Below are positions 33,403 to 51,734 of a DNA stretch of 64,000 nt, piece by piece. How positions within the stretch are numbered: the stretch's first letter is position 1; the number at the start of each line of letters is the position of its first letter. A model generated the notes under the pieces. That model was not told where the DNA came from, made no database searches, and worked only from the letters and a program-made list of their open reading frames with translations. The position numbers were made by a program, and so were the translations under genes. Source of the DNA: Rhodococcus sp. (in: high G+C Gram-positive bacteria) (GTDB lineage: Bacteria > Actinomycetota > Actinomycetes > Mycobacteriales > Mycobacteriaceae); assembly GCA_023264675.1 (NCBI GenBank), contig JAHFVG010000019.1:6097-70096 (forward strand), given 5' to 3'.

Positions 33403-34833
33403 TCACATGGCGTCGGTGATTCTCCGGAATGCTTGTGCAGCTTCGAGTTCGAAAGCCAATTCGAGGAGCCGCCCCTCGGCTCCATGATCGGCCGATAGCT
33501 GAACTCCGATCGGAAGTCCCTCCGGCGACTGCGCGAGCGGCAACGAGAGTGCGGGCCCGCCGCTGGCATTGTTGAGCGGGGTGAAGGCGACGTAGGCGAG
33601 GAGCCGGGGAAACAAGACGTCGAAACCGTTGGCCGGGGACAGATGTCCGAGTCGAGGAGTCGTGTGCGCCACCACCGGAGACACCATGACGTCGACGTCT
33701 GCGAAAGACCGGTGGTAGATGGCCTCCGATTGTCGGAGGCGGCGAATCACCTGAGGGGTACGCCAGAACGCTCGGAGAAACATCGCCGAGAGCCCACGAG
33801 TGAGGGCATCGATTGCAGACGCATCGAAACTGGGGTCCATGACCCTTTTTCCGAATCGGTGCACCGCAAATGCCAGCAACCCCCAGTAGTGCTTGAAATC
33901 CTCCTGGAATGCTTCGAGTTCCTTCTCCGGCAGCGGAAGACCCAGTTCGGTGACATCGTGCCCGAGCGCACTGAGCAACTGTGCCGTGTCCGAGACGGCT
34001 TTCCTCGTCGGATCGTCGACGTCGATCCCGGGCAGCGAGCTGCTGATCACGCCAATCCGCAGACGTCTGCTCGACGGCCCCTCGACCAGACCGACAGGGG
34101 CGAGACGTGGCGCCGCGCGATACCGCTCGATCTGAGCTACGAACGTGGCGGTATCGCGGACCGTCCGAGTGAGAACCCCGTTGGACACGATGTTCACCGG
34201 CATGCCCGCGGAATGAGCGTCCGCGAGTTCTCGGCCACGAGTGAGTTTGAGTCCGACCAGTCCACAGGCTGCGGCGGGAATACGGATGGAACCGCCGCCG
34301 TCGTTCGCGTGGGCGAGTGGCACCACTCCCGCAGCCACCAGGGCAGCCGAACCGCCGGAGGACGCCCCGCTGGAGTACTCCGTATTCCACGGATTTCGGG
34401 TCGGCGGCAGAGTTTCGTACTCGGTGCTGGCGTTGAATCCGAACTCGGGCAGAGTCGACTTGCCGAGACTGATGAGCCCGGTGGACAGCAATTGATCGGT
34501 GAATGGCGCATTGCGGGTCGCGGGGGCGGCGTCGACACCGAGCGATCCGTGGTTGCTCGCCAGCCCGGCAACGTCGGTGTTGTCTTTGACGAAAGTGGGC
34601 ACCCCCGCGAACACACCCGAGCCCGGACGTCGTGCGTGTTCGCGAGCGCGGTCGAAATCCGAGCTCTGGATTGCGTTGAGTCTGCTGTCGACGGCGTCGG
34701 CGCGCGCAATTGCCGCGTCGACGGCCTCGGCGGCGCTGATGTCACCGGATGCGATGGCCGCGGCGATCCCCGTCGCGTCTAGTCGGCCCAGCGCATCGTC
34801 ACCGAACGAGTGGACCCGGGTGGACAGTGACAA
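33403..34833 (-). CDS. Amidase (amidase signature family)
   Basis: FVKD, GASSGGS, DGGGSIRIPA (Ser-cisSer-Lys triad). Confidence 0.92.
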   Translation of the reverse strand: MSLSTRVHSFGDDALGRLDATGIAAAIASGDISAAEAVDAAIARADAVDSRLNAIQSSDFDRAREHARRPGSGVFAGVPTFVKDNTDVAGLASNHGSLGVDAAPATRNAPFTDQLLSTGLISLGKSTLPEFGFNASTEYETLPPTRNPWNTEYSSGASSGGSAALVAAGVVPLAHANDGGGSIRIPAAACGLVGLKLTRGRELADAHSAGMPVNIVSNGVLTRTVRDTATFVAQIERYRAAPRLAPVGLVEGPSSRRLRIGVISSSLPGIDVDDPTRKAVSDTAQLLSALGHDVTELGLPLPEKELEAFQEDFKHYWGLLAFAVHRFGKRVMDPSFDASAIDALTRGLSAMFLRAFWRTPQVIRRLRQSEAIYHRSFADVDVMVSPVVAHTTPRLGHLSPANGFDVLFPRLLAYVAFTPLNNASGGPALSLPLAQSPEGLPIGVQLSADHGAEGRLLELAFELEAAQAFRRITDAM

Positions 34834-34889
34834 CAGCAGACCCCCTGTGTGAAGTTACGAGCCGAGTGTCCGAGCGTAGCGCCGACTTC

Positions 34890-35666
34890 CTAGATGGAGT
34901 GTCGGGTTCCGCCCAGATGGCGTGCGAGGAAGCGCGCCGAGCTGTCCTGCTCGTGTTCGGGGACTTGAAAGTGGCTGCCCGGGTGGGCGTGCAAGGTCTT
35001 GTCCTTCGAGGCGAAGGCGTCGAACAACGCAAGACCGGAGGTGCGATCGATGTGGTCGTCGTCCCATGGAATCCGATACTCGAGTGGGACCGTTATCTTT
35101 CGCGCGGACTCGATCAGAGCGTCCGCGACGAATACTCCGCCGAAACTCAGCGCTGCGATCCGAGATTCGACCGAGGCCAACATGAGCCCTGTTGCGACGC
35201 CGAGCGTCACTCCGCCGTATCCGATGGGAGCTTCGGCGCCGATGTCGGGCAGAGCCTGTAGGGCGTCGAGGGTTCTCTGCCATTCCGGCACAGCGCGATC
35301 GGCCAGCGACATGTTGTAGTCGACGACTGCCGAGGCGATGGAACGACCACCCGCTCGGGCACTCTGGATATCGTCGACCCACTGCTGATCCTGACGATTG
35401 CGTGGGCGGTCGCCGTGCCCGGGTGCGTCGATCGCGGCGACGAGAAAGCCATAGGTTTCGACGCAGTGAAGTGCGTTCGCCACCAAACCCGGCGCCTTCT
35501 TGTGCATACCGCCGCTGTGGCCCGACAAGAGCAACGGCGAGCCTGGGGCCGTCGAGCCGGAGGTGGGTGACCAGAGAACGCCGGTGATCTCGCCGAGCGT
35601 GAACTCTCGTTCGACGAGGCCGTGTGCCGATGTGCCCGAGACGAGTGTGTGAGAGATGAAGTCCAT
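34890..35666 (-). CDS. Alpha/beta-fold hydrolase (dienelactone hydrolase-like) with an atypical nucleophile elbow
   Basis: LLLSGHSGG, IDAPGHGDR, elbow GVTLG, WDD, HPGSH. ATG 35666 follows GAAAGG. Confidence 0.82.
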   Translation of the reverse strand: MDFISHTLVSGTSAHGLVEREFTLGEITGVLWSPTSGSTAPGSPLLLSGHSGGMHKKAPGLVANALHCVETYGFLVAAIDAPGHGDRPRNRQDQQWVDDIQSARAGGRSIASAVVDYNMSLADRAVPEWQRTLDALQALPDIGAEAPIGYGGVTLGVATGLMLASVESRIAALSFGGVFVADALIESARKITVPLEYRIPWDDDHIDRTSGLALFDAFASKDKTLHAHPGSHFQVPEHEQDSSARFLARHLGGTRHSI

Positions 35667-35754
35667 GGTGTGGCCTTTCGGGAATGCCTTGTCGAGGAGG
35701 CGCTCCCGGCGACACCTAGATAGTTCGCCCGGCCGTGAATCCGAGGGGAGCACC
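35667..35754 (-). promoter_or_regulatory. Alternative RNA hairpins (translational attenuator) sequestering the hydrolase RBS
   Basis: One fold pairs GGUGUCGCC:GGCCACACC and GGGAGCGCCU:AGGCAUUCCC around GAAAGG. A competing fold pairs GGUGCUCCC:GGGAGCGCC and GGCGA:UCGCC. Confidence 0.65.
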
Positions 35755-35775
35755 CAATGGGGATACAGCGTTCAT
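35716..35775 (-). CDS. Leader peptide (uORF) MNAVSPLGAPLGFTAGRTI
   Basis: Full consensus SD AAGGAGGTGA (35781-35790) 5 nt before the ATG; the stop is 49 nt upstream of the hydrolase start. Confidence 0.7.
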   Translation of the reverse strand: MNAVSPLGAPLGFTAGRTI

Positions 35776-35811
35776 GGGTCTCACCTCCTTGCGTGCGATC
35801 ACGGTCACCGG

Positions 35812-35848
35812 ACGGTATCAACCCGAAAGGCACACGTCCACCGATTTG
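35812..35848 (-). promoter_or_regulatory. Housekeeping-sigma-type promoter TGGACG-N17-TACCGT with an upstream CAAATC element
   Basis: -35 at 35835-35840, -10 at 35812-35817, and an A-rich element at 35843-35848 just upstream of the -35. Confidence 0.45.
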
Positions 35849-35881
35849 ATTTTGGGCACCCTGGCCTGTGGTCGAGCCAGC

Positions 35882-36298
35882 TCAGGTTGCGTCAGGGGCG
35901 AGCGGTCCCAACTCGGTGACGAGTACCTCTTGAACAACGCGCATTGCTGCGAGCGCAGCGGGCGCCCCGCAGTAGCCGGCAGTGTGAATCACGGTTTCGA
36001 CGATCTCCTCGCGCGTCAGCCCGTTGCGCAGTGCGCCGCGCACGTGACCCGCGAGTTCTTCGTGCGCTCGCAACGAAATGAGGATTCCCAGGTTCAGCAG
36101 GCTGCGACTGCGCCTGTCCAGACCGGGCCGCGTCCACACCGCTCCCCACACCGACTCGGTCACGAACGACTGCAAGGCGGCCGAGTCGGTGCCGTCGGCT
36201 TTCGCGAAGGCGCGTTCGACGAAGTCGGCGCCCATCACTTCTCGGCGGACCTTCAATCCTTGTTCGAACTTCTCGTGTGGAGCTGAATCCTGCGTCAT
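35882..36298 (-). CDS. Carboxymuconolactone decarboxylase (CMD/AhpD-like) family protein
   Basis: VWGAVWTRPGLDRRSRSL, ELAGHVRGALRNG, YCGAP. Confidence 0.88.
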   Translation of the reverse strand: MTQDSAPHEKFEQGLKVRREVMGADFVERAFAKADGTDSAALQSFVTESVWGAVWTRPGLDRRSRSLLNLGILISLRAHEELAGHVRGALRNGLTREEIVETVIHTAGYCGAPAALAAMRVVQEVLVTELGPLAPDAT

Positions 36299-36504
36299 GG
36301 TCTCGGTCTCCGTGTGTTCGATGGGTACAGGGGTTTCTCGACCACCCTCGGCGGTGCTTCACACCGTGCAGGTGGTCGAGGTGAGTACAACGTGACCGTC
36401 AGATCATCGTTGCGAAACCCTAACGCGTCGAGCGGCGGGCAAGGTCGTGGCTCGTACGGAACGTACGAATCTGCAACCAGGTTCACGGAGCGGAAGGTCT
36501 TGTC

Positions 36505-37707
36505 ATGACGGTGGACTCCGCCGATGTTCGGACCGCGACCGAGATGCTGTCGCTGACCGAGGCGCGGGCTGTGATCGGACTCGCGGTGTCGCCGTTGCCT
36601 GCCCGCCTTGCGGCAGTCACCGACAGTCTCGGTGCAGGGTTGGCGTCGCCGATACTGGCCGAGGCACCGCTTCCCGCAGTCGATCTGTCGGCGATGGACG
36701 GTTATGCCGTTGCAGGCCCCGGGCCCTGGCGGGTGCGAGACGACGTTCGGACGGCAGGCGGGCCGTCGGTCCCTGCTCTCGTGCCGGGTACAGCCGTGCG
36801 GATCGCCACCGGCGCTCGGCTGCCGCAGGGTGCGGATACCGTCGTCCGCGACGAACATCTGGTGTCCTCGGTTCCGGATGGTCTGATTGCGCGGAAGATG
36901 GGATTCCCGGTCCGTGACGATGTCCGTCGGCGAGGCGAATGCTGGGGCAGTGGGCGCGAGCTGGTTGCAGCCGGAACCCGGGTGTCGACGGCAGTGATCT
37001 CGTCAGCACTGTCAGCGGGGGTGAACGAGGTGTGGGTACGAGGGAAGGTACGCGCACACGTGCTGCTCACCGGTGACGAGATCAGCCGTTCGGACGTTCT
37101 CGACCCCGGCCAGACCCGCGACACCCTCGGTCCGATTCTGCCGACGGTGCTCACCGGCCTCGATATGGCCTGCTCGTTCGTCTCACACGTACGAGACGAC
37201 GAGGGGGCGATGCTTCGCGAGATTCGCGCCGTGGACGAAGTCGACGTTGTCTTTGTCGTCGGGTCGACCGGACGGGGTGCGGCCGACCATCTACGCACCG
37301 GCCTGGGTGCACTCGGGGCGACCACGATCATCGACGGGATCGATATTCGCCCAGGCGGTTCGCTGCTCACCGCAGTGCTCCCTTGCGGTCGCATCGTGAT
37401 CGGATTGCCGGGAAATCCACTGGCCGCTGTCGCATCTCTGTTGGCAATCGGTCCCGCTCTGGTCGTCGCGTTGACCGGCCGCAGGCCGACAGCTCCCGTG
37501 CTGGGCATACTGTCCGGGTACGTGTGCGACGGCTCCGATCGAACCAGGGTGGTGCCGGCGAGTCGGCACATCGACGGGCGGTGGAAGGTCCATCCGTCCG
37601 GATCCACCGCCCACCTTGCGGCTCTCGTCGGTGTCGATGCCTTGGCGATCATCCCGCGAAACCATTGTGACGCAACACCGATAGAGCTGTTGCCCGTCGT
37701 AGTGTGA
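36505..37707 (+). CDS. moeA: Molybdopterin molybdotransferase MoeA
   Basis: SAMDGYAV, IATGARLPQGAD, LTGDE, RPG, GLPGNP. Confidence 0.9.
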   Translation: MTVDSADVRTATEMLSLTEARAVIGLAVSPLPARLAAVTDSLGAGLASPILAEAPLPAVDLSAMDGYAVAGPGPWRVRDDVRTAGGPSVPALVPGTAVRIATGARLPQGADTVVRDEHLVSSVPDGLIARKMGFPVRDDVRRRGECWGSGRELVAAGTRVSTAVISSALSAGVNEVWVRGKVRAHVLLTGDEISRSDVLDPGQTRDTLGPILPTVLTGLDMACSFVSHVRDDEGAMLREIRAVDEVDVVFVVGSTGRGAADHLRTGLGALGATTIIDGIDIRPGGSLLTAVLPCGRIVIGLPGNPLAAVASLLAIGPALVVALTGRRPTAPVLGILSGYVCDGSDRTRVVPASRHIDGRWKVHPSGSTAHLAALVGVDALAIIPRNHCDATPIELLPVVV

Positions 37708-37711
37708 TCGT

Positions 37712-38080
37712 ATGACCGACATGACACCACCGGACGGGGGAGCACTGCTGTTCTCCTATGGAACTTTGCAGCAGCGCGAGGTTCAGATCGCCAACTTCGG
37801 CGGTGTATTGCCGGGTGAGGCCGACGTTCTTCCCGGGCATGCACTGACGGTGTTGCTGATCACCGATCCCGACGTCGTCGCGCTCAGCGGAACCGATCGT
37901 CACCCGATCGTGGCGCCGAGCGACGATCCCGATGCCCGGGTCGACGGGACGGTCTTTGCACTCACCGCCGAGCAACTTGCTGCAGCCGACACCTACGAAG
38001 TTGCCGACTATGCCCGGTTCGAGGTCACCCTCGGCTCCGGTCGGCGCGCGTGGGTTTACCTTGCCGCCGCGCCCCACTGA
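37712..38080 (+). CDS. Gamma-glutamylcyclotransferase family protein
   Basis: LFSYGTL, ADTYE, AWVY. Confidence 0.87.
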   Translation: MTDMTPPDGGALLFSYGTLQQREVQIANFGGVLPGEADVLPGHALTVLLITDPDVVALSGTDRHPIVAPSDDPDARVDGTVFALTAEQLAAADTYEVADYARFEVTLGSGRRAWVYLAAAPH

Positions 38081-38190
38081 TCTCTCGGCGAGCACCGTCG
38101 GCCATCCGTCGATCCTTTCGCAGCGAAGTACTCATAGCGATGTACAACGAGGACGAGGATGAGCACCGTGACGAAATCAGGTGGAGCAGA

Positions 38191-39477
38191 GTGGCACAGG
38201 AGCCGCTGATGCCTGAGCGTCCGCAGGGTTTCGAGCGTCTCGGGCGTTTCCGAAGTCCCTTGCGGGGGCCGTGGTTGACGTCGTTCTTCGGTTCGCTGTT
38301 GTTGTTGGGCCTGCCGATCATCATCCTGACCGGCTTGCTGTCCTATATCGCGTACGGTCCACAATTCGGGCAATCACGGCCGAGCGACGTCGGCTGGTTG
38401 AAACTGCCGACGTTCGACTGGCCGACCGACCCGGCTTGGTTGTATCAACTGACCCAGGGTGTGCACGTCGGACTCGGTCTGGTGATCATTCCTCTCATCC
38501 TCGCAAAGCTCTGGTCGGTGATGCCCAAGCTGACTCAGTGGCCCCCGGTCCGATCGGTAGCGCAACTGCTCGAACGGATTTCGCTTCTCGCTCTGGTCGG
38601 CGGCCTTCTGTTCGAGATCATCACCGGCGTTCTGAACATCCATTACGACTACATCTTCGGTTTCGACTTCTATGCCGCGCACTACTTCGGGGCGTGGGTG
38701 TTCATCGCAGGCTTCGTCGTCCATGTCGTACTCAAAGTTCCGCTGATGTGGCGAACACTGCGTTCGCGCTCACTCATGGAAGTACTGCGGACACGGACCG
38801 AGGACACCGAACCGGAAGAACTCGACGAGGGTGGCCTCGTCTCGCGTGATCCCGCCGCCGTCACCATCGCCCGTCGCGGTGCACTCGGTCTCGTTGCCGC
38901 GGGGACGGCATTCATTGCGGTTCTGACCGTCGGGCAGACGGTGGGCGGGCCGTTGCGCAAAGCTGCCCTCCTGCTCCCACGCGGGCGATCGTACGGTAAC
39001 GGGCCCAACGACTTTCAGATCAACCGGACAGCGCAGGCGGCAGGGATAACCGACGGCGTCACCGGTGCGGAGTGGCAACTCACCCTCTCCAGCACCGATG
39101 ACGACACCTCGGACGTGGTACTGACCCGCGGCCGATTACTGTCGATGCCCCAGCACACTGCCGTACTACCGATCGCCTGCGTCGAAGGGTGGTCGAGTAC
39201 ACAAACCTGGACAGGTGTGCGGCTCGCCGATCTGGCGGTGCTCGCAGGCGTGTCCGATCCGCGGTCCGCGGTCGTGACATCGCTCGAGCAGAGCGGTGCG
39301 TTCAATCGGGCTGTCCTGCAGGGCAATCAGGTGACCCACGCCGACGGACTGCTGGCGTTGAGGGTCAACGGCGACGAGCTTTCACTCGACCACGGTTACC
39401 CCGCTCGGATCATCGTTCCGGCTCTCCCCGGAGTGCACAACACCAAGTGGGTCGCGGCTATCGAGTTCCGAGTCTGA
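38191..39477 (+). CDS. Membrane-bound molybdopterin-dependent oxidoreductase (sulfite oxidase/YedY family) with an N-terminal cytochrome-b-like domain
   Basis: Four TM helices with His, internal RRGALG + TM, IACVEGWS (Mo-Cys), LDHGYPARII.P, KWV. Start is 38191 or 38209. Confidence 0.85.
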   Translation: MAQEPLMPERPQGFERLGRFRSPLRGPWLTSFFGSLLLLGLPIIILTGLLSYIAYGPQFGQSRPSDVGWLKLPTFDWPTDPAWLYQLTQGVHVGLGLVIIPLILAKLWSVMPKLTQWPPVRSVAQLLERISLLALVGGLLFEIITGVLNIHYDYIFGFDFYAAHYFGAWVFIAGFVVHVVLKVPLMWRTLRSRSLMEVLRTRTEDTEPEELDEGGLVSRDPAAVTIARRGALGLVAAGTAFIAVLTVGQTVGGPLRKAALLLPRGRSYGNGPNDFQINRTAQAAGITDGVTGAEWQLTLSSTDDDTSDVVLTRGRLLSMPQHTAVLPIACVEGWSSTQTWTGVRLADLAVLAGVSDPRSAVVTSLEQSGAFNRAVLQGNQVTHADGLLALRVNGDELSLDHGYPARIIVPALPGVHNTKWVAAIEFRV

Positions 39478-40521: not shown

Positions 40522-41109
40522 ATGAGTGCCATGGCCAGATGGGAGCCCGGTTCACGGGAGAGATTGAGGGTTGCGGCGCTCGAGCTCTATGTCGCGCGTG
40601 GATTCGAACAGACGACTACCGCCGATATCGCACGCTCGGTCGGTCTCACGGAGCGCACCTTCTTCCGGTATTTCACCGACAAGCGTGAGGTTCTGTTCGG
40701 AGGTCAAGAACAGTTGGAGAAGATCTTCGTCGACGGCATCGCGTCGGCACCGGAGGGTTCCTCGCCTGTCGACGCCGTTGCGCATGCTCTGGAAGCCGCG
40801 GCGGAGTTCTTTCCCGAGGATCACCGCTCGGACGCGCGACAACGTCAGAACGTCATCCTCGCCAACGAAGGCCTGCGTGAACGTGAGCTGCTCAAGATGG
40901 CGCGGCTGTCTCAGTCCATCGCATCGGCACTCCGCGATCGCGGGACGCCCGAGCCTCAGTCGACGCTCGCGGCGGAGGCCGGCGTGACGGTATTCGGTGT
41001 CGCGTTCCGGTTGTGGGTCGAGGCAGGCGAGAAGCGGTCGTTCGCCCAGTTGGAACGAGATGTTCTCGGCGAACTGCAGGGAGTGATCACGCCCGGCCGG
41101 TCGAGCTGA
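40522..41109 (+). CDS. TetR-family regulator
   Basis: RWEPGSRERL, GFEQTTTADIARSVGLTERTFFRYFTDKREVLF. Start is 40522 or 40531. Confidence 0.9.
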   Translation: MSAMARWEPGSRERLRVAALELYVARGFEQTTTADIARSVGLTERTFFRYFTDKREVLFGGQEQLEKIFVDGIASAPEGSSPVDAVAHALEAAAEFFPEDHRSDARQRQNVILANEGLRERELLKMARLSQSIASALRDRGTPEPQSTLAAEAGVTVFGVAFRLWVEAGEKRSFAQLERDVLGELQGVITPGRSS

Positions 41110-41151
41110 GCCGGGCAGGTGTGATCATTGCGTGCCGCCGCGCTGCCCGCG

Positions 41152-41514
41152 TCACCGTTCGAGTCGTTCACGGACCTCGGCAAGGCGTTGCTGTAGTTCG
41201 GCTTCGTCGATGACTCCGTGCGACACGAGTGAATGCGCCAGTGCCACAAGCTGATTCTCAGGATAGGGGAGGGCGGAGTACGTCGACGACGTCAGTGCAT
41301 CCTCCTCGTCGCGCCGAGTCTTGAAGTCGAGGACGTCAGTGCCGCATTCCGAACGATCCAGAACGTCGCACAGAGCATCCAAGCTGGACTTCCACGGCGG
41401 CAGTGGATTGCTCACGCCGTACTTCGTCGCCATTCGGGGCCAGACGTGATCACGGGAAACGATGTCCCGAAGTACGGAGATCTGGGTGGTGAGCTCGGGC
41501 TCGACGTCGGTCAT
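41152..41514 (-). CDS. Thiocyanate hydrolase accessory/activator protein (P15K/NHase-activator-like)
   Basis: Last gene of the scn operon (ATGA overlap); the C-terminal LVSHGVIDEAELQQRLAEVRERLE resembles NHase beta-N/activator helices. Confidence 0.65.
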   Translation of the reverse strand: MTDVEPELTTQISVLRDIVSRDHVWPRMATKYGVSNPLPPWKSSLDALCDVLDRSECGTDVLDFKTRRDEEDALTSSTYSALPYPENQLVALAHSLVSHGVIDEAELQQRLAEVRERLER

Positions 41515-42254
41515 GACTTGTCCTCGGCGCTCGACGCGACCGCGGGGTGTATCGCGGGCCGGGTGGCGGTGATGACGTTCGTGGTCACGCCGGGCTTCGG
41601 GAGTGCTACGCCGATCAGACAGTCTCGGGTGATGATCTCGGACAATTGATCCTCGTTCCAGCCCTCGGTACCGTCAGGCCGCACCGGCATCACCATGAAG
41701 CGGTGCTTCTGATTCGAATCCTGCACTCGAACAGCAATGTCCGCTGGCACGTTCAATCCGAACTCGGACAGGACCTGACGGGGCCAGCGGACCAGTCGCC
41801 GCCGATAATTCGGTGTCCGATACCACTCGGGTGAATTTCCGAGGATCGGTCGTGGATAGCAGGAGCACAGCGCGCAGACGATCACGTTGTGAAGGTCCGG
41901 GGTGTCTTCCAGGATCTCGAACGCCGTGAAGTCACTGGGAGTGCCGAAACCCGTCGGTTCGAGCCAATCGACGCCGACCGCTTTGCTCGCCTCCATCGCG
42001 TCGCTGAGCGCGAGTTGCTTGAACGACTCGTCGAGCCACGCTCTGGCCACCAACCGGGCAGCGGGGGTCGGGCCTATCTGCTCGGCGAATTCCGTGAAAT
42101 GTCGATGCTCCTCGGCGGTGAAAAGCCCTTTCTCGATGCATAATTCGCGAAGGGCGATTTCGAGCACTTCGAAGTCGGTGACTTCGTCGACCATGGGCGC
42201 CACCGTCCGAGCGTGGTCATGGTCATGGTCATGGTCGTGGTGATCATCGGACAT
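41511..42254 (-). CDS. scnC: Thiocyanate hydrolase gamma subunit (Co-binding, NHase alpha homolog)
   Basis: HD-rich N-terminus, VCALCSCYPRPILG.SPEWYR.PNYRRRLVRWPRQVL, closely matching ScnC as I recall it. ATG 42254 follows AGGAGG. Confidence 0.9.
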   Translation of the reverse strand: MSDDHHDHDHDHDHARTVAPMVDEVTDFEVLEIALRELCIEKGLFTAEEHRHFTEFAEQIGPTPAARLVARAWLDESFKQLALSDAMEASKAVGVDWLEPTGFGTPSDFTAFEILEDTPDLHNVIVCALCSCYPRPILGNSPEWYRTPNYRRRLVRWPRQVLSEFGLNVPADIAVRVQDSNQKHRFMVMPVRPDGTEGWNEDQLSEIITRDCLIGVALPKPGVTTNVITATRPAIHPAVASSAEDKS

Positions 42255-43125
42255 GTGCGTCCTCCTGATGAGGGGACTTGGCGCTCTGGGGAACTGCGCG
42301 AAGCCAACGTTCGGGAATCTCGGTCTGGAGGGTGTCGATCGTCGGTCCGGTGTATCCGTGCCACAACGTGGACAGTGAGAATCTGACGACGTAGAACCAC
42401 TCGGCCACGGCGCCGGGCCGATCCCATGTCTCGTCCTCCGGGGCTGGACTCTCGTAGGCCACCGCTGCAATCTCGCCGACGGCACCGCGCACGTATTCCG
42501 GTGTGCGGGTGTAGAAGACGACCGGCAATTCGCGAACCTGCACTGAATCGCCGACTCCGAACCGGGGAATCCCTGCCGTGCCGGCGAACACTTGTGGGTC
42601 GCCTTTTCCGAGGGCGTGAAGATGGTGAGTGTTGCGCTCGACCTGTGAACCGTCGCCGGCGAACTTGGGTTGAGCTTCCGGCAGTGCACCGCCGAGCCCC
42701 CCTGCGAAGCGCTCGGTCACTTCGGCGATTCGGTCGCTGAGCTCGCCGGAGCTCACGTGATGTTTCTCGACGAGAATCCGGGCCACCGCCAGCAGCCATC
42801 GCCCGTAGTACGGAATCCCCAGATATACCGCACGACCCACATCGACGTTACCGATTCGGCGGCGCTCCTCGGACACCCAGATGCCGCGCCAGGCCAGTAC
42901 CTCGCAGATGACGTAGGTCAGGTGTTCCCAGTTCTCGTATTCCTTGTTCTCGTACGTCATCGGAGCATCGGGTTCGCCGCCGACATCGTGAGAGGGCTTC
43001 ATGTACGCCGAAAATCTGGCGTGATCCAGCAGATCCGGAGTCGGGGCATCGGGGAGTTCGGGGTACGCAGACTTCAGTCGCGCCACCAGGTCGAGTTGCT
43101 CTGCACGTTCAGCCGAGTTGGTCAT
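42244..43125 (-). CDS. scnB: Fused thiocyanate hydrolase beta+alpha subunit (NHase-beta-like, SH3-like C-terminus)
   Basis: ScnB-like half: HDVGGE, LAWRGIW..EERRR, YLG.PYYGRWLL. ScnA-like half: GDPQ.F.G, YTRT..Y.RGA.G, YESPA.EDE, EWFY, TEIPERWL. One continuous frame. Confidence 0.87.
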   Translation of the reverse strand: MTNSAERAEQLDLVARLKSAYPELPDAPTPDLLDHARFSAYMKPSHDVGGEPDAPMTYENKEYENWEHLTYVICEVLAWRGIWVSEERRRIGNVDVGRAVYLGIPYYGRWLLAVARILVEKHHVSSGELSDRIAEVTERFAGGLGGALPEAQPKFAGDGSQVERNTHHLHALGKGDPQVFAGTAGIPRFGVGDSVQVRELPVVFYTRTPEYVRGAVGEIAAVAYESPAPEDETWDRPGAVAEWFYVVRFSLSTLWHGYTGPTIDTLQTEIPERWLRAVPQSAKSPHQEDAHVR

Positions 43126-43431
43126 GACAAGACGCTCTCGTGTTCGGGACGATCCAGCTGTCAGTCCTTCAACCGTGGTCGCCGGTCCACCGGGGGATCC
43201 AGCGGACACTCGACCTGGCCGGGCCGTGAAGTACCCGGTCACCTCGATCGTTTCGTCCAATTTCTCATATCGGACGGTCGTGTGCCGCCGAAATGGAAAT
43301 TGCACGTCCCGTCCCGGCTCCCGTTCGCCGCTCAGCCTTGCGCTTGTTCGTCTCTTTCAGCATTGTCGACGGTGACGAGTTCGTCGGACCACATCTGGTC
43401 CGATCGGGGTGATCGAGGGAGATGGTCGAAG

Positions 43432-45096
43432 ATGGACGCGGACGTGATCGTTGTCGGAGCAGGCCTGGCAGGTTTGGTGGCTACCGCCGAACTGGCAGAC
43501 GCAGGCAAACGCGTCGTGCTTCTCGATCAGGAACCCGAGCAGAACCTCGGCGGCCAGGCATTCTGGTCGCTGGGCGGGATGTTCATGATCGATACTCCCG
43601 AGCAGCGCCGGATGGGCGTCAAGGACTCTCCCGAACTGGCCTGGCAGGACTGGCTCGGGACGGCAACCTTCGACCGCGGTATCGACGATCCCGCGGGTGA
43701 GGACTACTGGGGCTATCGCTGGGCGCGTGCGTATCTCGACTTCGCGGCAGGGGAGAAGCGGTCCTGGCTGCACGCGCAGGGTGTCCGGTGGGTGCCCATC
43801 GTGGGGTGGGCCGAACGCGGCGGATACCTTGCCGACGGCCACGGCAACTCGGTTCCTCGATTCCATCTCACGTGGGGCACCGGGCCCGGTGTCGTCGCGC
43901 CGTTCGAACGCCGCGTTCGTGAGGCGGCGGCACAAGGGCTGGTGCGGTTCGCCTTTCGTCATCGAGTGGACGAGTTGACCATCACCGACGGTGTGGTCGA
44001 CGGCGTCCGCGGGGCGGTTCTCGAGCCCAGTTCTGCCGAACGCGGGTCCGGTAGTACCCGAACCGAGGTCGAGGAATTCGAACTTCACGCAAGCGCCGTC
44101 CTCGTCACCGCCGGTGGAATCGGGGGCAATCACGATCTGGTTCGCGCGAACTGGCCTGCCAGGCTGGGGGCCGCTCCGAAGTCCATGATCTCCGGCGTGC
44201 CCGAACACGTGGATGGACGCATGATCGGCATCACCGAGCGCGCAGGCGGCCGACTGGTGAACAAGGATCGGATGTGGCACTACACCGAGGGCATCAGGAA
44301 CTGGAATTCGATCTGGGCCAATCACGGCATTCGCATCATTCCTGGGCCGTCGTCGATGTGGTTCGACGCGCGGGGCCGCCGATTCCCTGCCCCGAACTTC
44401 CCCGGTTTCGACACCCTCGGCACCCTTCAGGCGATCCAGGACACCGGATACGACTACTCGTGGTTCGTACTCACCCAGAAGATCATCGAGAAGGAGTTCG
44501 CGCTGTCCGGGTCGGAGCAGAACCCCGACATCACCGGAAGGAACCTCAAACTTGTTCTCGGACGGGTATTGCCGGGCGCGAGCGAACCGATCGAAGCGTT
44601 CAAGAAGCACGGCGAGGACTTCGTGGTGGCCGACAACATCGACGACCTCGTGGCCGGCATGAACAAGATCACCGACGAACCGCTGATCGATCGGGACGAT
44701 CTGCATCGCCAGATCGTCGCCCGTGACCGGGAGACCGACAATGCGTTCACCAAGGATCTGCAGATCTCCGCCATTCACAACTCCCGTCGCTCACGCGGAG
44801 AGCGGATCGCCAGGACGGCGTCTCCTCACAAGATCCTCGATCCGAAATCGGGACCGCTGATCGCTGTCCGGCTCAACATCGTCACCCGCAAGACGCTCGG
44901 CGGCATTCAAACCGACCTGGCGGGACGCGTGCAGAGCGATGATGGCGCGGCCGTTCCCGGTCTGTGGGCTGCCGGCGAGATCGCCGGGTTCGGTGGCGGC
45001 GGGGTGCACGGATACCGATCTCTGGAAGGAACCTTTCTCGGCGGGTGCATCTTCAGCGGTCGACAGGCCGGTCGGGCGCTGGCCGCGGAGGTCTAG
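43432..45096 (+). CDS. FAD-binding dehydrogenase (FAD_binding_2; KsdD-like/Rv0785 family)
   Basis: GAGLAGL, GGQAFWSLGG, HGNSVPRFH.TWGTGPG, RKTLGG, EGTFLGGC. Start at ATG 43432. Confidence 0.88.
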   Translation: MDADVIVVGAGLAGLVATAELADAGKRVVLLDQEPEQNLGGQAFWSLGGMFMIDTPEQRRMGVKDSPELAWQDWLGTATFDRGIDDPAGEDYWGYRWARAYLDFAAGEKRSWLHAQGVRWVPIVGWAERGGYLADGHGNSVPRFHLTWGTGPGVVAPFERRVREAAAQGLVRFAFRHRVDELTITDGVVDGVRGAVLEPSSAERGSGSTRTEVEEFELHASAVLVTAGGIGGNHDLVRANWPARLGAAPKSMISGVPEHVDGRMIGITERAGGRLVNKDRMWHYTEGIRNWNSIWANHGIRIIPGPSSMWFDARGRRFPAPNFPGFDTLGTLQAIQDTGYDYSWFVLTQKIIEKEFALSGSEQNPDITGRNLKLVLGRVLPGASEPIEAFKKHGEDFVVADNIDDLVAGMNKITDEPLIDRDDLHRQIVARDRETDNAFTKDLQISAIHNSRRSRGERIARTASPHKILDPKSGPLIAVRLNIVTRKTLGGIQTDLAGRVQSDDGAAVPGLWAAGEIAGFGGGGVHGYRSLEGTFLGGCIFSGRQAGRALAAEV

Positions 45097-45254: not shown

Positions 45255-45608
45255 ATGAATCCGCTCGCAACCGAAGCACCTGCACCCGCGCTCCAGCGTG
45301 TGTGCTTTCTCCTGGCCCTGCGCCCGGATCGAGTCGATGACTACCTCGCGGCTCACGAGTACGTGTGGCCGGAGATGCTCGACGCTCTGCGCACCGCCGG
45401 TTGGCGAAACTACTCGCTGTTTCTCCGCCGGGAAGACGGCCTCGTCGTCGGCTACGTCGAATCCGAGGACCCGGCTGCGATGACGGCCGCGATCAGCGCG
45501 ACGGACGTCGACGCTCGGTGGCAGGCGACCATGGCCGAGTACTTCGAACCGTCCGCTCGTCCGGACGAGCCGCTCGAATTTCTCACGCACTACTTTCACC
45601 TCCCCTGA
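45255..45608 (+). CDS. rhaM: L-rhamnose mutarotase
   Basis: Y..AHEYVWPEM...L...GWRNYSLFL; rha operon context. Confidence 0.9.
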   Translation: MNPLATEAPAPALQRVCFLLALRPDRVDDYLAAHEYVWPEMLDALRTAGWRNYSLFLRREDGLVVGYVESEDPAAMTAAISATDVDARWQATMAEYFEPSARPDEPLEFLTHYFHLP

Positions 45609-45651
45609 TCTCGGGTCGCGAGACGCGGCCCCCACACCTTCCGGAGCCCTC

Positions 45652-47025
45652 ATGAAGATCGGCGCCAAATCCACCACCGGGTGGAAGGCAACCATTTCGG
45701 TTGCCATGAGCAATTACATCGAAGCAGGATCGATCATTGCGATCGCAACCTCGCTCACGTTGTGGCAGAACGAGTTCGGCATCAGCAACCTCGCCGTCGG
45801 TCTGCTGGCAGCCTTCAGTGCCAACGCCTTCGGTGCTGCGATCGGCGCAGGTATCGGTGGGCCCCTGTGTGATCGTTACGGACGTAAAGCGATCTACACC
45901 TACGACCTCATGGTGTACATGGTCGGAGTATTGATCGCGGCGTTCGCCGTCAACTTCACCATGCTGTTGGCCGCATTCGTCATCACCGGTGTCGCGGTCG
46001 GCGCCGGCGTGCCTGCCTCGTGGACCTACATCGCCGAACAGGCACCCTCACGTGAACGCGCCCGGCACGTCGGCACCGCCCAACTTGCCTGGTCGGTAGG
46101 ACCGTTCGTGGGATTCGCGCTGGCGGCTGCCCTCTCGCCGCTCGACCTACTCGGATCGCGCATCATCTTCCTGCATCTCTTCGTCGTGGCTGCTGTCGTC
46201 TGGTGGATCCGTCAGGGACTGCCGGAATCGGTCATCTGGAAAGACGAAGCCAAGAACACCGCCGCTGCCGCCGCTCGCGCCGTCACCTTCGGAGCCCAGG
46301 GACTGAAGGGGCTGTTCACCAAGCGCGTCAACATCACAGCGCTGCTCGTGCTCATCGGTATCTACGGGTTCTGGAACACAGTCGCAGGCCAGGCAGGGAT
46401 CTTCATGCCCCGCGTCTACGAGAGCGCGGGCGTCGAGAGCGCCGTCCAGCAGAACCTCCTGCAGGTGCTGGTGTGGGGATGCACCGTTGCGGCGACGTAC
46501 TTCGGGTTCATGCGCTACGCCGACCGTGTGTCGCAGCGAGCCCTCTACTGCGTCGGAGCCGTCCTCGGCATCGCGGCCTGGGCGATCCTCGTGTTCTTCA
46601 CCGACGCGGGCATGCCGACGCTGCTGATCTTCGCGGTGACGTGGGGAGCCGCGGCCGGTATCGGAGCTCAGGCCTTCTACAGCCTGTGGGCCAGCGAGCT
46701 GTTCGCCACCCCGTACCGCGCCAGTGCGCAAGGCTTCATGTTCTTCGTCGTGCGCACCGCGACCGGTCTGCTCAGCTACTTCTTCCCGACGCTGCTTGCG
46801 GCCACCGGCCTCACCACGGTCGGCCTGCTCCTCATCGGCCTTCTCACCGTCGCCCTCGCGATCGGAGCCGTATTCGCCCCGAATACGCGCGGAAAGTCGT
46901 TGCAGGAGATCGAAACCGAACGATACGGCGACGTCGTGTCCGCCGACCTGACCGACTCCGTCGGTGAAACCGACTTCCCAGACCACGCCGGCGACGCCGG
47001 CCGTACCCCGGAGCGTGCACTGTGA
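45652..47025 (+). CDS. MFS sugar transporter (probable L-rhamnose importer)
   Basis: About 12 TM helices, DRYGRK, YIAE, ELF, PNTRGKSL; inside the rha operon. Confidence 0.87.
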   Translation: MKIGAKSTTGWKATISVAMSNYIEAGSIIAIATSLTLWQNEFGISNLAVGLLAAFSANAFGAAIGAGIGGPLCDRYGRKAIYTYDLMVYMVGVLIAAFAVNFTMLLAAFVITGVAVGAGVPASWTYIAEQAPSRERARHVGTAQLAWSVGPFVGFALAAALSPLDLLGSRIIFLHLFVVAAVVWWIRQGLPESVIWKDEAKNTAAAAARAVTFGAQGLKGLFTKRVNITALLVLIGIYGFWNTVAGQAGIFMPRVYESAGVESAVQQNLLQVLVWGCTVAATYFGFMRYADRVSQRALYCVGAVLGIAAWAILVFFTDAGMPTLLIFAVTWGAAAGIGAQAFYSLWASELFATPYRASAQGFMFFVVRTATGLLSYFFPTLLAATGLTTVGLLLIGLLTVALAIGAVFAPNTRGKSLQEIETERYGDVVSADLTDSVGETDFPDHAGDAGRTPERAL

Positions 47026-48185
47026 TTGCCCCCGACCCGACTGCTGTCCTCGACGCCCTCGCCATCGAGCTTCCCTCATGGGCTTTCGGTAACTCGGGAA
47101 CTCGTTTCAAGGTCTTCGGGACTCCGGGCACACCGCGAACGATCGAGGAGAAGATCGCGGACGCGGCCACCGTTCATCGACTCACCGGGCTTGCTCCATC
47201 GGTCGCACTGCACATCCCGTGGGACCTCGTGGACGATTTCGGTGCCTTGACCCGCTATGCGCAGGATCAGGGCGTGAGGCTGGGAACGGTCAATTCGAAC
47301 ACGTTCCAGGACGACGACTACAAGTTCGGAAGTCTCACCCACACTGACAAGACGGTGCGGCAGAAGGCGATCGATCACCACATTCGCTGCCTCGACATCA
47401 TGTCGGAGATCGGCTCGCAGGATCTGAAGGTGTGGTTGGCGGACGGAACGAACTATCCGGGTCAAGGCGATATCCGCGGGCGGCAGGACCGACTCGCAGA
47501 GTCGCTGGCAGCGATCTATCAGCATGTCGGCGAACATCAGCGGTTGGTGCTCGAGTACAAGTTCTTCGAGCCCGCGTTCTATGTCACCGACGTCCCCGAC
47601 TGGGGTACCTCGTATGCGCACACCGTCGCATTGGGGGAGCGGGCAGCAGTGTGCCTCGACACCGGTCATCACGCGCCCGGTACGAACATCGAATTCATCG
47701 TTGCTCAACTGCTCAGACTCGGAAAGCTCGGTTCGTTCGACTTCAACTCGCGCTTCTACGCCGACGACGATCTGATCGTCGGTGCGGCGGATCCGTTCCA
47801 GCTCTTCAGGATTCTGTTCGAGGTGATCCGCGGCGGCGGACTCGCGCCGGGTTCGGATCTCGCACTCATGCTCGACCAGTGCCACAACGTCGAGGCGAAG
47901 ATTCCCGGGCAGATCCGATCGGTGCTCAACGTGCAGGAAATGACGTTGCGGGCGGCACTCGTCGACACCGGTGCGTTGACCACTGCCCAGGAAGCAGGAG
48001 ATGTGCTCGGCGCCAACGAGATCTTCATGGACGCCTTCTACACCGACGTCCGGCCGCGGCTCGAGACCTGGCGTCAGGAGCGCGGCCTACCGGCCGCACC
48101 CATGCGGGCGTATGCCGAATCCGGCTACCAGGAGCGCATCGACACCGAGCGCGTAGGCGGCACTCAGACATCCTGGGGCGCCTGA
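47022..48185 (+). CDS. rhaI: L-rhamnose isomerase (RhaI, xylose-isomerase-like)
   Basis: IELPSWAFGNSGTRF, HIPWD, EYKFFEP, DTGHH, FNSRFYADDD, DQCHN. Confidence 0.93.
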   Translation: MIAPDPTAVLDALAIELPSWAFGNSGTRFKVFGTPGTPRTIEEKIADAATVHRLTGLAPSVALHIPWDLVDDFGALTRYAQDQGVRLGTVNSNTFQDDDYKFGSLTHTDKTVRQKAIDHHIRCLDIMSEIGSQDLKVWLADGTNYPGQGDIRGRQDRLAESLAAIYQHVGEHQRLVLEYKFFEPAFYVTDVPDWGTSYAHTVALGERAAVCLDTGHHAPGTNIEFIVAQLLRLGKLGSFDFNSRFYADDDLIVGAADPFQLFRILFEVIRGGGLAPGSDLALMLDQCHNVEAKIPGQIRSVLNVQEMTLRAALVDTGALTTAQEAGDVLGANEIFMDAFYTDVRPRLETWRQERGLPAAPMRAYAESGYQERIDTERVGGTQTSWGA

Positions 48186-48224
48186 GACATGACAACCGAC
48201 CCAGCTCCCACAAGGAAGACGATC

Positions 48225-50258
48225 ATGAACAAGTCTGTCGCCGCACTGCTGGCGCGATCGAATCGCCTCGGCTCGGACCCCACCAACACCAACTACGCGG
48301 GGGGCAACACCTCCGCGAAGGGCACCGATATCGACCCGGTGACCGGAGACGACGTCGACCTGATGTGGGTCAAGGGGTCGGGTGGCGACCTCGGTACCCT
48401 CACCGAAAGCGGTCTTGCGGTGCTTCGCCTCGATCGGTTGCGTTCACTCGTCGACGTCTACCCGGGAGTCGACCGCGAAGACGAGATGGTTGCCGCCTTC
48501 GACTACACGCTGCACGGGCGGGGCGGTGCTGCACCGTCCATCGACACCGCCATGCACGGTCTGGTCGACGCGCCGCACGTGGACCATTTGCATCCCGATT
48601 CGGGAATTGCGATCGCCACGTCCGCGGACGGCGAAGAGTTGACTCGCGCCATCTACGGTGACCGCGTGGTGTGGGTTCCGTGGCGCCGACCGGGGTTCCA
48701 ACTGGGACTGGATATTTCGGCGATAAAGTCCGAGAATCCGCAGGCGATCGGCTGCATCCTCGGCGGGCACGGAATCACTGCCTGGGGAGACACGAGCGAC
48801 GAGGCCGAGGCTCACTCTCTCGAGATCATTCAGGCAGCACAGGCGTACCTCGACGAGAACGGCAAAGCCGATCCCTTCGGCACACCTCTCGACGGTTACG
48901 GAGCACTGCCGGAGGAACAGCGACGCGCCAAGGCCGCAGCACTGGCGCCGCACATCCGCGGTCTCGCCTCCACCGACGAACCCAAGGTCGGCCACTTCAC
49001 CGACTCCGCCGCCGTCCTCGACTTTCTGGCCGCGACCGAGCACCCGCGTCTCGCCGCACTCGGGACGAGCTGCCCCGATCACTTCCTGCGAACCAAGGTG
49101 ACGCCACTCGTTCTCGACCTTCCGGCGGACGCATCGCTTCAGCAGTGCATCGAGCGGCTCTCGACGTTGCACGAGCAGTACCGCAAGGACTACCAGGCGT
49201 ACTACGACAGGTTCGCGACCGAGGAATCTCCGGCAATCCGCGGGGCCGACCCGGCCGTGGTGCTGATCCCCGGCGTCGGAATGTTCACCTACGGCAAGGA
49301 CAAGCAGACCGCCCGCGTGGCCGGTGAGTTCTACGTCAACGCCATCAATGTCATGCGCGGAGCGGAGTCGGTCTCGCAGTACAGTCCGATCGACGAATCG
49401 GAGAAGTTCAAGATCGAGTACTGGGCACTCGAAGAAGCCAAGCTCGCGCGTATGCCGAAGCCGAAGCCGCTCGCGACCCGTATCGCATTGGTCACCGGCG
49501 CGGCGTCGGGAATCGGCAAGGCGATCGCCACCAGGCTCGCTGCCGAAGGAGCCTGCGTCGTCATCGCCGACCTGGACGAGCAGAAGGCAGTCGACGTCGC
49601 AGCCGAGATCGGCAACACCGACGTCGCGATCGGTGTCCGCGCCGATGTCACCGACGAAGCCGCCGTTCAGGCCGCAGTCGATGCGACGGTCCTCGCCTTC
49701 GGCGGAATCGACCTCGTGGTCAACAACGCTGGGTTGTCGCTGTCCAAGCCTTTGCTGGACACGACCGTCGCGGACTGGGACCTGCAGCACGACGTGATGG
49801 CACGCGGATCTTTCCTGGTCTCACGTTCGGCTGCGTCGGCACTCATCGCTCAGAAGATGGGCGGAGACATCTTGTACATCTCGTCGAAGAATTCCGTCTT
49901 CGCCGGCCCCAACAACATCGCCTACTCCGCAACCAAGGCCGACCAGGCACACCAGGTGCGCTTGCTGGCAGCAGAACTGGGCGAACACGGAGTGAAGGTC
50001 AACGGAATCAACCCCGACGGGGTGGTTCAGGGCTCGGGAATCTTCGCAGGCGGATGGGGTGCATCGCGTGCCGCGGTGTACGGCGTGGACGAATCCGATC
50101 TCGGCAAGTTCTACGCCCAGCGGACACTACTGAAGCGCGAGGTACTGCCCGAGAACATCGCCAACGCTGCGTTCGTGATGTGCACGTCCGACTTTTCGCA
50201 CACCACCGGGCTGCACGTGCCCGTCGACGCGGGTGTTGCCGCTGCGTTCCTGCGATGA
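48225..50258 (+). CDS. rhaD: Bifunctional rhamnulose-1-phosphate aldolase / short-chain (lactaldehyde) dehydrogenase
   Basis: GGNTSAK, KGSG.DL, PSIDT.MH, HLHPD, SCPDHFLRTK and a C-terminal SDR (TGAASGIG, YSATK). Start 48225 follows AAGGAAG. Confidence 0.93.
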   Translation: MNKSVAALLARSNRLGSDPTNTNYAGGNTSAKGTDIDPVTGDDVDLMWVKGSGGDLGTLTESGLAVLRLDRLRSLVDVYPGVDREDEMVAAFDYTLHGRGGAAPSIDTAMHGLVDAPHVDHLHPDSGIAIATSADGEELTRAIYGDRVVWVPWRRPGFQLGLDISAIKSENPQAIGCILGGHGITAWGDTSDEAEAHSLEIIQAAQAYLDENGKADPFGTPLDGYGALPEEQRRAKAAALAPHIRGLASTDEPKVGHFTDSAAVLDFLAATEHPRLAALGTSCPDHFLRTKVTPLVLDLPADASLQQCIERLSTLHEQYRKDYQAYYDRFATEESPAIRGADPAVVLIPGVGMFTYGKDKQTARVAGEFYVNAINVMRGAESVSQYSPIDESEKFKIEYWALEEAKLARMPKPKPLATRIALVTGAASGIGKAIATRLAAEGACVVIADLDEQKAVDVAAEIGNTDVAIGVRADVTDEAAVQAAVDATVLAFGGIDLVVNNAGLSLSKPLLDTTVADWDLQHDVMARGSFLVSRSAASALIAQKMGGDILYISSKNSVFAGPNNIAYSATKADQAHQVRLLAAELGEHGVKVNGINPDGVVQGSGIFAGGWGASRAAVYGVDESDLGKFYAQRTLLKREVLPENIANAAFVMCTSDFSHTTGLHVPVDAGVAAAFLR

Positions 50259-51715
50259 CGATCGGGCAGGTCGCAGCGATCGATCTCGGTGCCACGAGCG
50301 GGCGGGTGGTCCTCGCGAACGTCGGAACGGACACGGCGGGCAAGGACGTACTCGAACTCGAGGTGGCGGTGCGGTTTCCAAACGAGCCGCTGCGCCTGTG
50401 GAACGGCTCGCGGGCGGCGCTGCACACGGACGTTCCAGCGCTCTTCGGGCACGTCTCACGCGGCCTGGCAGACCTCTCGCGCCGGTCGACCGACCTGGTG
50501 AGCATCGCGGTCGACTCGTGGGCAGTGGACTATGGCCTGCTGAGGGATGGACGCTTGCTCGGCCTTCCCCATCATTACCGCGACGAGCGGGCAGCACGCG
50601 GCGTCACGCTGGTCGAGTCCGTGGTCGATCGGGCAGAGTTGTTCGCCCGCAACGGTTTGCAGTTCCTTCCGTTCACCACCCTCTACCAGCTGGCGGTGGA
50701 CCGAGCCGACGGCGTATTGGACCTCGCGGACCGCGCGCTGCTGATTCCCGATCTGATCGGGTACTGGCTGACCGGCATCGAGGCGACCGAACACACGAAT
50801 GCGTCGACGACCGGACTGTTCGGCACCGACGGCACCCGCGACACGGCATTGTTCGACAGACTCGGTCTCGCGTCGTCGTTGTTCGCGGACGTGATCGAGC
50901 CAGGGTCGGTTCTCGGCCGCGTACTTCCCGGCGTCGTCGACGGTTGTCAGGACGTGGCGGTGTCCGTCGTCGGATCTCACGACACCGCTTCCGCGGTCGC
51001 TGCCGTCCCCATGGATCCCGATACTTCCGCCTATATCTCCTGCGGGACGTGGGGGCTGGTGGGCGTCGAAACGCGTGCACCCCTCGTCCACGAGCGCACT
51101 CGCGCAGCCGGATTCACCAACGAGGCCGGTGTGGACGGCCGAACCAGGCTGTTGCACAACGTCATGGGTCTGTGGTTGCTCTCCGAATCCGTTCGCGAAT
51201 GGTCGGTGCAGGACGGCGAAGCAGTCGACCTGCCGGAATTGCTTGCTGCGGCAGCGCAGTGCCCGTCGTCGTCGCTCGTCTTCGACGCCGACGACGACAC
51301 CTTTCTTCCACGAGGTGACATGCCCGCTCGTATCGGCCGCTGGTATCGCGAACGCGGTCTCGAAGTTCCGGCATCACGGGTGGAAACCGTCCGCGCCATC
51401 ATCGACTCGCTCGCCGCGGCGTTCGCGCGTTCGGTGCGCGACGCCGCAGCAGTGTCCGGCATCGACGTTCGACGGGTGCACGTGGTCGGTGGTGGCGCTC
51501 AGAACGCGCTGCTGTGTCGTGCGATTGCCGATCAGCTCGGACTGCCGGTGTTTGCAGGCCCCGTGGAAGCGACAGCCATCGGTAACGTGTTGATACAGGG
51601 ACGGACACACGGATTGATCGGCGGTGACCTCGAACGACTCCGCGATACCGTCGCGTCGGCGTTCCCACCCCAACGTTACGACCCCTCGCCCCGCCACGGT
51701 TCACGCACCGCGTGA
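50255..51715 (+). CDS. rhaB: Rhamnulokinase (FGGY family)
   Basis: [51 protein letters not shown] overlap. Confidence 0.92.
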
Positions 51716-51734
51716 TCACCGGAAAGGAACATCG

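Follow-up and report, generated by a model that had tools for sequence, protein, structure and literature searches.

To our knowledge, work on thiocyanate hydrolase (SCNase, EC 3.5.5.8) has centred almost entirely on sulfur oxidisers of the Thiobacillus type and on reactors for mining and coke wastewater. In SCNases a non-corrin Co(III) with oxidised Cys ligands converts SCN- to COS and NH3. The described enzyme of Thiobacillus thioparus THI115 is encoded by scnB-scnA-scnC together with the activator P15K, and its structures and those of related forms are available (PDB 2DD4, 2DD5, 2DXB, 2DXC, 2ZZD and 3VYG). Its relatives, the Co-type nitrile hydratases (NHases, EC 4.2.1.84) such as those of Pseudonocardia thermophila (1IRE) and Bacillus smithii (1V29), have a two-gene beta-alpha layout with a downstream activator. 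The locus described here lies in a stretch of 64,000 nucleotides from a groundwater metagenome assembly (contig JAHFVG010000019.1, filed under Rhodococcus sp.; hereafter the window), where the counterparts of ScnB and ScnA are joined in a single chain of 293 residues, encoded by one gene, scnBA, that is followed by scnC and an accessory gene. Homology, signature residues, gene order, distribution and tree position support the view that these genes encode a cobalt-type thiocyanate hydrolase with a derived one-chain ScnB-ScnA, an explanation that we hold to be probable as a whole. The three genes form a tightly packed operon at 41152-43125 on the minus strand, with the following features in the order of transcription.

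43126-43416, no strand assigned: intergenic region between scnBA and a divergent FAD-binding gene, predicted promoter site
42244-43125, minus strand: scnBA, fused ScnB-ScnA subunit of 293 aa (open reading frame (ORF) and translation; Pfam; matches to 2dd4_B and 2dd4_A)
42679-43125, minus strand: ScnB-like half, aa 1-149 (aa 9-149 align with ScnB 11-153)
42856-42870, minus strand: EERRR motif, aa 86-90, equivalent to ScnB Glu88-Arg92 by alignment with ScnB 88-92
42634-42678, minus strand: connector, aa 150-164, EAQPKFAGDGSQVER, colinear with the C-terminal tail of ScnB and, after it, the N-terminal tail of ScnA
42298-42633, minus strand: ScnA-like half, aa 165-276, with the SH3-like NHase_beta_C domain (aligns with ScnA 12-124, E 2.3e-29)
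41511-42254, minus strand: scnC, gamma (metal-binding, NHase-alpha-like) subunit of 247 aa (TIGR03887; 2dd4_C, E 1.4e-110)
42213-42248, minus strand: His/Asp-rich N-terminal tract of gamma, DDHHDHDHDHDH, with the same tract in T. thioparus ScnC
41850-41876, minus strand: metal claw C127-A-L-C130-S-C132-Y-P-R135, equivalent to T. thioparus Cys128/Cys131/Ser132/Cys133 plus Arg136
41152-41514, minus strand: accessory gene of the activator-like kind, 120 aa, overlapping scnC by 4 nt; weak NHase_beta_N match

The scnBA frame runs from an ATG at 43125 to a TGA at 42244-42246, and its start methionine is shared with homologues. Pfam recognises both NHase_beta_N (aa 42-150) and NHase_beta_C (aa 186-276) in the single chain. 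In a phmmer search of all PDB chains, aa 9-149 matched ScnB residues 11-153 of 157 (E 1.8e-42) and aa 165-276 matched ScnA residues 12-124 of 126 (E 2.3e-29), the best NHase beta match reaching E 1.5e-12. The original prediction, made from the letters of the window, that both halves share one 293-aa frame is thus borne out by the ORF, by both Pfam domains and by the two alignments, and the scnBA product corresponds to a whole NHase beta subunit. The 15 aa of the connector are accounted for by the residues left unaligned, 4 at the C terminus of ScnB and 11 at the N terminus of ScnA, and for this reason the chain looks like a plain end-to-end joining of the two proteins. Across 26 aligned fused proteins, G157, D158 and R164 of the connector and the adjoining N165 are invariant; the connector is therefore under constraint. 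The C-terminal tail of the chain (42244-42297) is about 14-17 residues longer than in most homologues because the scnBA frame continues into the scnC start. An AlphaFold2 model of the lone fused chain, built on a 26-row alignment, reached a mean pLDDT (predicted local distance difference test) of 56, too poor for a fold search.

The SCNase-type residues that had been predicted are also retained. In particular, the ScnB-like half begins with an SCNase-specific N-terminal extension (aa 1-41) ahead of the NHase_beta_N start at aa 42, and its EERRR motif includes the counterparts of ScnB beta Arg90 and Arg91. Among the 26 aligned fused homologues E86, E87, R88 and R89 do not vary, and R90 hardly does. 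NHase beta reads FDEFR opposite EERRR in the HMMER alignment, with the final Arg alone in common.

The partner of this chain is an orthologue of the SCNase gamma subunit, in agreement with the NHase-like two-subunit form foreseen for the locus. The scnC start overlaps the scnBA end by 11 nt and is preceded by AGGAGGA, and its product, which has an NHase_alpha domain (Pfam), is 67% identical to T. thioparus ScnC over the aligned length. It passes the NCBIfam equivalog TIGR03887 (thiocyanate hydrolase subunit gamma) with 381.3 bits at a cut-off of 291.45, and it stays below the NHase alpha equivalog TIGR01323 (204.3 vs 249.85 bits), as does the scnBA product below the NHase beta equivalog TIGR03888 (82.6 vs 152.2 bits), so that by these two models the pair falls outside the nitrile hydratases. 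The claw has the Co-type form, Cys-x-Leu-Cys-Ser-Cys and then Tyr, and its CSCYPR aligns with the CSCYPR of T. thioparus, which provides a counterpart of gamma Arg136. Beta Arg90 and gamma Arg136 are said to control the selectivity for thiocyanate over nitriles. In our survey of loci the position of Arg136 is occupied by Arg in all SCNase-type loci and by Trp in NHase loci, and Trp at this position is the sole difference of PDB 3VYG from 2DD4. The second claw residue is Ala in the window and in most of the crown of the fused clade, and Thr, Ser or Cys in other fused members.

The accessory protein shows the weak NHase_beta_N match that is usual for NHase activators. Homologous ORFs, 41-67% identical to it, lie directly after scnC in both split and fused loci, and it is 38-50% identical to the post-scnC ORF of T. 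thioparus-type loci (48% for L051). A downstream activator of the P15K type is thus present, as identified through the ORFs of T. thioparus-type loci rather than through P15K itself.

Taken side by side, the window and T. thioparus have the same gene order (beta part, alpha part, gamma, accessory), the same gamma features (His/Asp tract, Cys-x-Leu-Cys-Ser-Cys-Tyr-Pro-Arg claw, Arg136, 67% identity) and the same beta features (N-terminal extension and EERRR). They differ in the number of enzyme genes, two in the window, one of them for the 293-aa ScnB-ScnA chain, and three in T. thioparus; the three separate alpha, beta and gamma subunits of an SCNase are therefore not found here, alpha and beta being one ORF. 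They also differ at the claw, with Ala in the window and Thr in T. thioparus, and in the host, Nocardiaceae-like for the window and a sulfur-oxidising chemolithotroph for T. thioparus. With the Co-type NHases the locus shares the fold family, the two-gene beta-alpha layout, the downstream activator and the Tyr after the claw, whereas those enzymes have Trp for Arg136, FDEFR for EERRR and a beta subunit that lacks the SCNase N-terminal extension. By homology, the window enzyme would be the same SCNase (EC 3.5.5.8) with a different subunit count.

Since the window comes from a metagenome, and since three public "fused" representatives (P0131, P0132 and P0139) clearly result from frameshifted translation, the single frame could in principle reflect a frameshift or stop that was lost in assembly or sequencing, or the gene could be a decaying pseudogene. 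This explanation is exceedingly improbable. Indeed, another run within the groundwater study that yielded the window gave a contig that agrees with it over 42370-42736, including the junction, with 0 differences and 0 gaps; the fusion is therefore no assembly artefact, the outcome that would have undone the proposal. In addition, the codon signal of scnBA at third positions (GC3) is coding-like, residues within the connector are invariant, and the single frame also occurs in isolates and complete genomes. ScnB and ScnA share one frame in 24 independent loci, and among the best 120 of 769 relatives in a large protein collection all 120 are 267-308 aa long, are 73-82% identical to the window protein and contain both Pfam halves. 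The complete chromosome of M. gilvum (L107) has the same cassette, encoding 279 aa with both beta domains, 238 aa with NHase_alpha and a small ORF. P0131, P0132 and P0139 had been considered as divergent fused proteins and were discarded as frameshift-riddled translations from low-quality assemblies; one of them, of 479 aa, is seemingly joined to gamma too, again in a frameshifted translation.

The best 120 relatives come from Mycobacterium, Mycolicibacterium, Mycobacteroides, Nocardia, Hoyosella and Gordonia, which agrees with the expectation of similar genes in other actinobacteria, and they are found in databases as "SH3-like domain-containing protein", "nitrile hydratase subunit beta" or, at JGI, "thiocyanate hydrolase subunit beta". 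Homologues of 267-308 aa number in the hundreds and also occur in Methylocystis, where the copies (the P0123 cluster, from metagenome-assembled genomes, and L029:386-1219, the two being identical over the compared part) fall inside the otherwise actinobacterial fused clade. This position points to transfer of the cassette between phyla.

To place the fused form among its relatives, 107 loci were compared, with 26 loci from species genomes and 80 from metagenomes. The species genomes were scanned with the patterns DHDHDHD and MV[ED]EV[ST]DF, a poor choice that yielded the 26 loci, and a metagenome scan with the gamma core was substituted; split forms were sampled mostly from metagenome contigs. 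Architecture was scored by whether the ScnB-like and ScnA-like parts lie within one stop-to-stop frame, and it tracks gamma similarity across the 107 loci as follows.

Gamma identity to the window 71-100%: beta and alpha fused, with EERRR and CSCYPR
Gamma identity 58-75%: two overlapping beta and alpha genes of the T. thioparus kind, with EERRR and CSCYPR
Gamma identity 43-52%: beta and alpha split where both halves were scored, with CSCYPR and no EERRR
Ordinary NHases: architecture not scored, with CSCYPW

EERRR is present in all split SCNase-type loci, and the exceptions among the fused loci are L041, which reads EERRK, and L056, for which no motif was scored. In the distant group without EERRR, L084 was scored as fused on a 1.5-kb contig with a 23% beta match, a score that is unchecked.

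A maximum-likelihood tree of 78 gamma and alpha sequences, rooted on NHase alpha, unites the fused loci in one clade (support 100/97), so that one change of state suffices. The fused clade and the split clade of the T. thioparus type stand together with support 100/100, and all successive outgroups with a scored architecture are split. A second tree, for which the ScnB and ScnA parts were used without the connector, recovers the same nesting, with the fused clade at 100/99. An approximately unbiased (AU) test rejects a monophyletic group of split SCNases without the fused ones (delta lnL 20.7, p 0.0094). In the sister clade, the scnB stop lies a few codons past the scnA start codon, and the fused connector (...AGGLGGALPEAQPKFAGDGSQVERNTHH...) runs colinear with the ScnB tails (e.g., ...SGQGLGEYLPAKTK) and the ScnA heads (...HYDRTHH...) of that clade. 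Since under the NHase alpha root all fused forms fall into a single, derived clade within the three-subunit enzymes, the simplest history is a secondary re-joining of scnB and scnA, with loss of the stop/start overlap in a split ancestor. Two points tell against this history, namely that the group put to the AU test was chosen after inspection of the tree, and that in the beta tree the T. thioparus clade is only weakly supported as sister (82/57).

Outside this clade, P0133, a 282-aa protein of Sphingomonas sp. 3-13AW whose connector is much longer, is nested in the split clade of L064, L065 and L072 with support 99/95, and it is a second, independent ScnB-ScnA fusion. The comparison of fused and split forms that had been put forward as a check thus returned a single derived fused clade and a second fusion in Sphingomonas.

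The original prediction had described the fused gene as a plausible evolutionary intermediate, and the trees do not support this part of it. At first sight a single-chain SCNase beta-alpha seems primitive because NHase beta is a single chain, and the fused form could then be the ancestral NHase-like two-subunit state, surviving as an intermediate toward the three-subunit SCNase. We regard this as highly unlikely: genes are split in every lineage between the NHase root and the fused clade, the fused clade stands beside the T. thioparus type at 100/100, a monophyletic split group is rejected by the AU test (p 0.009), the connector matches ScnB tail plus ScnA head, and not the NHase beta linker, in length and sequence, and fusion arose at least twice. 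The secondary re-joining of ScnB and ScnA is derived and recurrent rather than intermediate, and this direction of change, as read from the trees, is the new contribution of the analysis.

Split beta subunits are not confined to SCNases. L009, L010, L015, L016 and L080-L106 are three-gene operons of the NHase family with a split beta, CSCYPR and no EERRR, and on these features the clade probably consists of three-subunit nitrile hydratases. NHases with a split beta include the toyocamycin nitrile hydratase ToyJKL and the three-subunit NHase of Streptomyces canus. ToyJKL-like enzymes can be likened, by name and not by sequence, to this split CSCYPR clade around the SCNases in the trees, which has no EERRR and a metal subunit 43-52% identical to that of the window. 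Enzymes such as these show that much of the NHase family has a split beta subunit. A separate ScnB-like half of 143 aa, with SEMRRR in place of EERRR, is present in Rhodococcus sp. W8901 (P0175/P0300), and split forms therefore occur in Nocardiaceae too.

As regards function, the window enzyme is very probably a thiocyanate hydrolase in view of its high identity and sister-group position to the characterised enzyme, of a metal site and selectivity residues that are conserved, and of an activator gene that is conserved too; we infer its catalytic activity, its metal, the maturation role and the physiological role. In the proposed mechanism, the gamma subunit would supply the Cys-x-Leu-Cys-Ser-Cys metal site, and the single ScnB-ScnA chain would wrap gamma as NHase beta does and supply arginines to hold in place the oxidised cysteines and the anionic substrate, while the accessory protein would act as a helper of metal insertion and maturation. 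The predicted reaction is SCN- + 2 H2O -> COS + NH3 + OH-, with carbonyl sulfide (COS) as a product. As to its origin, an ancestor with separate, translationally coupled scnB and scnA probably lost the stop/start junction once, and the fused cassette probably then spread across Mycobacteriales and into some Alphaproteobacteria.

An enzyme that is merely SCNase-like could instead be a nitrile hydratase or act on another cyano or thio compound, e.g., an organic thiocyanate. The change from Thr to Ala in the claw and the public annotation of the fused chain, often as "nitrile hydratase subunit beta", would fit this possibility, as would the lack of a linked COS-handling gene and the fact that the whole fused clade is known only as sequence. 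It is unlikely in view of a gamma subunit that is 67% identical to that of the characterised enzyme and in a sister-group position to it, of the NHase equivalog models that are not passed, and of the conservation of beta Arg90 and gamma Arg136, if these have the role in selectivity ascribed to them. In the literature search no published biochemistry of a fused or actinobacterial SCNase was found, as the original prediction had supposed, nor any remark on the fusion.

The thiocyanate hydrolase of the window would likely serve nitrogen, and possibly sulfur, scavenging rather than energy gain, in a non-lithotrophic, Nocardiaceae-like host. We only infer that this host is a heterotrophic actinobacterium; one neighbouring protein clusters at 90% identity with proteins of the Rhodococcus fascians group, and the surroundings of the operon are ordinary heterotroph genes (a rhamnose catabolic cluster, an amidase, molybdenum-cofactor genes, a TetR regulator and an SDR). 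Among the ORFs at 18-58 kb of the window, sulfur-oxidation genes are not linked to the operon. In M. smegmatis, MSMEG_6266/6267, annotated as thiocyanate hydrolase beta/gamma, are 3.4-3.7-fold up under nitrogen limitation and about 2.4-fold induced in a PII mutant (PMC4617892, PMC11001197), and the genome paper of M. indicus pranii describes the MIP3820-22 cluster as thiocyanate degradation machinery yielding a nitrogen source. Environmental mycobacteria have a fused beta-alpha chain 73-82% identical to that of the window in the same three-gene cassette (M. gilvum, L107), and the "thiocyanate hydrolase" reports from M. smegmatis and M. indicus pranii are annotation-based and leave the fusion unremarked. 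That the fused Mycobacteriales SCNase is a functional, nitrogen-regulated, thiocyanate-scavenging enzyme is conceivable on these grounds, and we rate it somewhat short of an even chance.

Several points count against the proposed function and role. The activity and metal of the fused clade are deduced from homology alone, and the claw, CALCSC, has Ala where the characterised SCNase and the Co-type NHases have Thr, at a position that varies between T, A, S and C within the fused clade. Among the same ORFs at 18-58 kb, a COS-hydrolysing beta-carbonic anhydrase, a cyanase and a transporter are not linked to the operon, and across 20 fused loci no neighbour beyond the three genes is conserved. A GlnR-type box (GTnAC-n6-GAAAC) is not enriched over background in the 250 bp upstream of 21 fused operons, so that nitrogen control of the window operon is unproven, and MSMEG_6266 is only presumed to be the fused form. 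As to COS, it could be handled by an unlinked enzyme, since actinomycetes, including Mycobacterium and Rhodococcus isolates, are known COS degraders.

Within its family the window gene is an ordinary member of a large, widespread and already annotated group, and fused SCNase genes are abundant and cited as "thiocyanate hydrolase" in mycobacterial genome and transcriptome papers. The spread of the two-gene form through Mycobacterium, Nocardia, Gordonia and Rhodococcus-like bacteria suggests that heterotrophs routinely use thiocyanate as a nitrogen source and that it is a route to carbonyl sulfide in soils and groundwater. If the enzyme is functional and nitrogen-regulated, an overlooked biological sink for thiocyanate and source of carbonyl sulfide would exist in common actinobacteria of soil and water and in some methanotrophs to which the cassette was transferred. 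For expression and engineering, a beta-alpha chain that is fused by nature would offer a simpler construct. A modest evolutionary point is that subunit splitting in the nitrile hydratase family has been undone at least twice; such recurrent re-joining of scnB and scnA would imply, if true, that the split is selectively near-neutral and reversible in this enzyme family.

Upstream of scnBA, the intergenic region at 43126-43416 presumably bears the promoter of the operon. In 40900-43600 a promoter scan recognised no sigma-70-like promoter, and no riboswitch or other Rfam match was obtained even at a permissive threshold. One terminator-like hairpin lies inside scnBA on the plus strand, a number within chance expectation.

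On one side of the operon, the region at 33403-39477 contains an amidase (33403-34833, minus strand), a CMD/AhpD-like protein (35882-36298), MoeA (36505-37707), a GGACT-like protein (37712-38080) and a membrane protein with a C-terminal molybdopterin oxidoreductase domain (38050-39477). On the other side, 45255-52970 is occupied by an L-rhamnose-type catabolic cluster with a rhaM mutarotase, an MFS sugar transporter, a RhaA-like isomerase, a class II aldolase-SDR fusion of 689 aa, an FGGY kinase and an FMN-dependent dehydrogenase.

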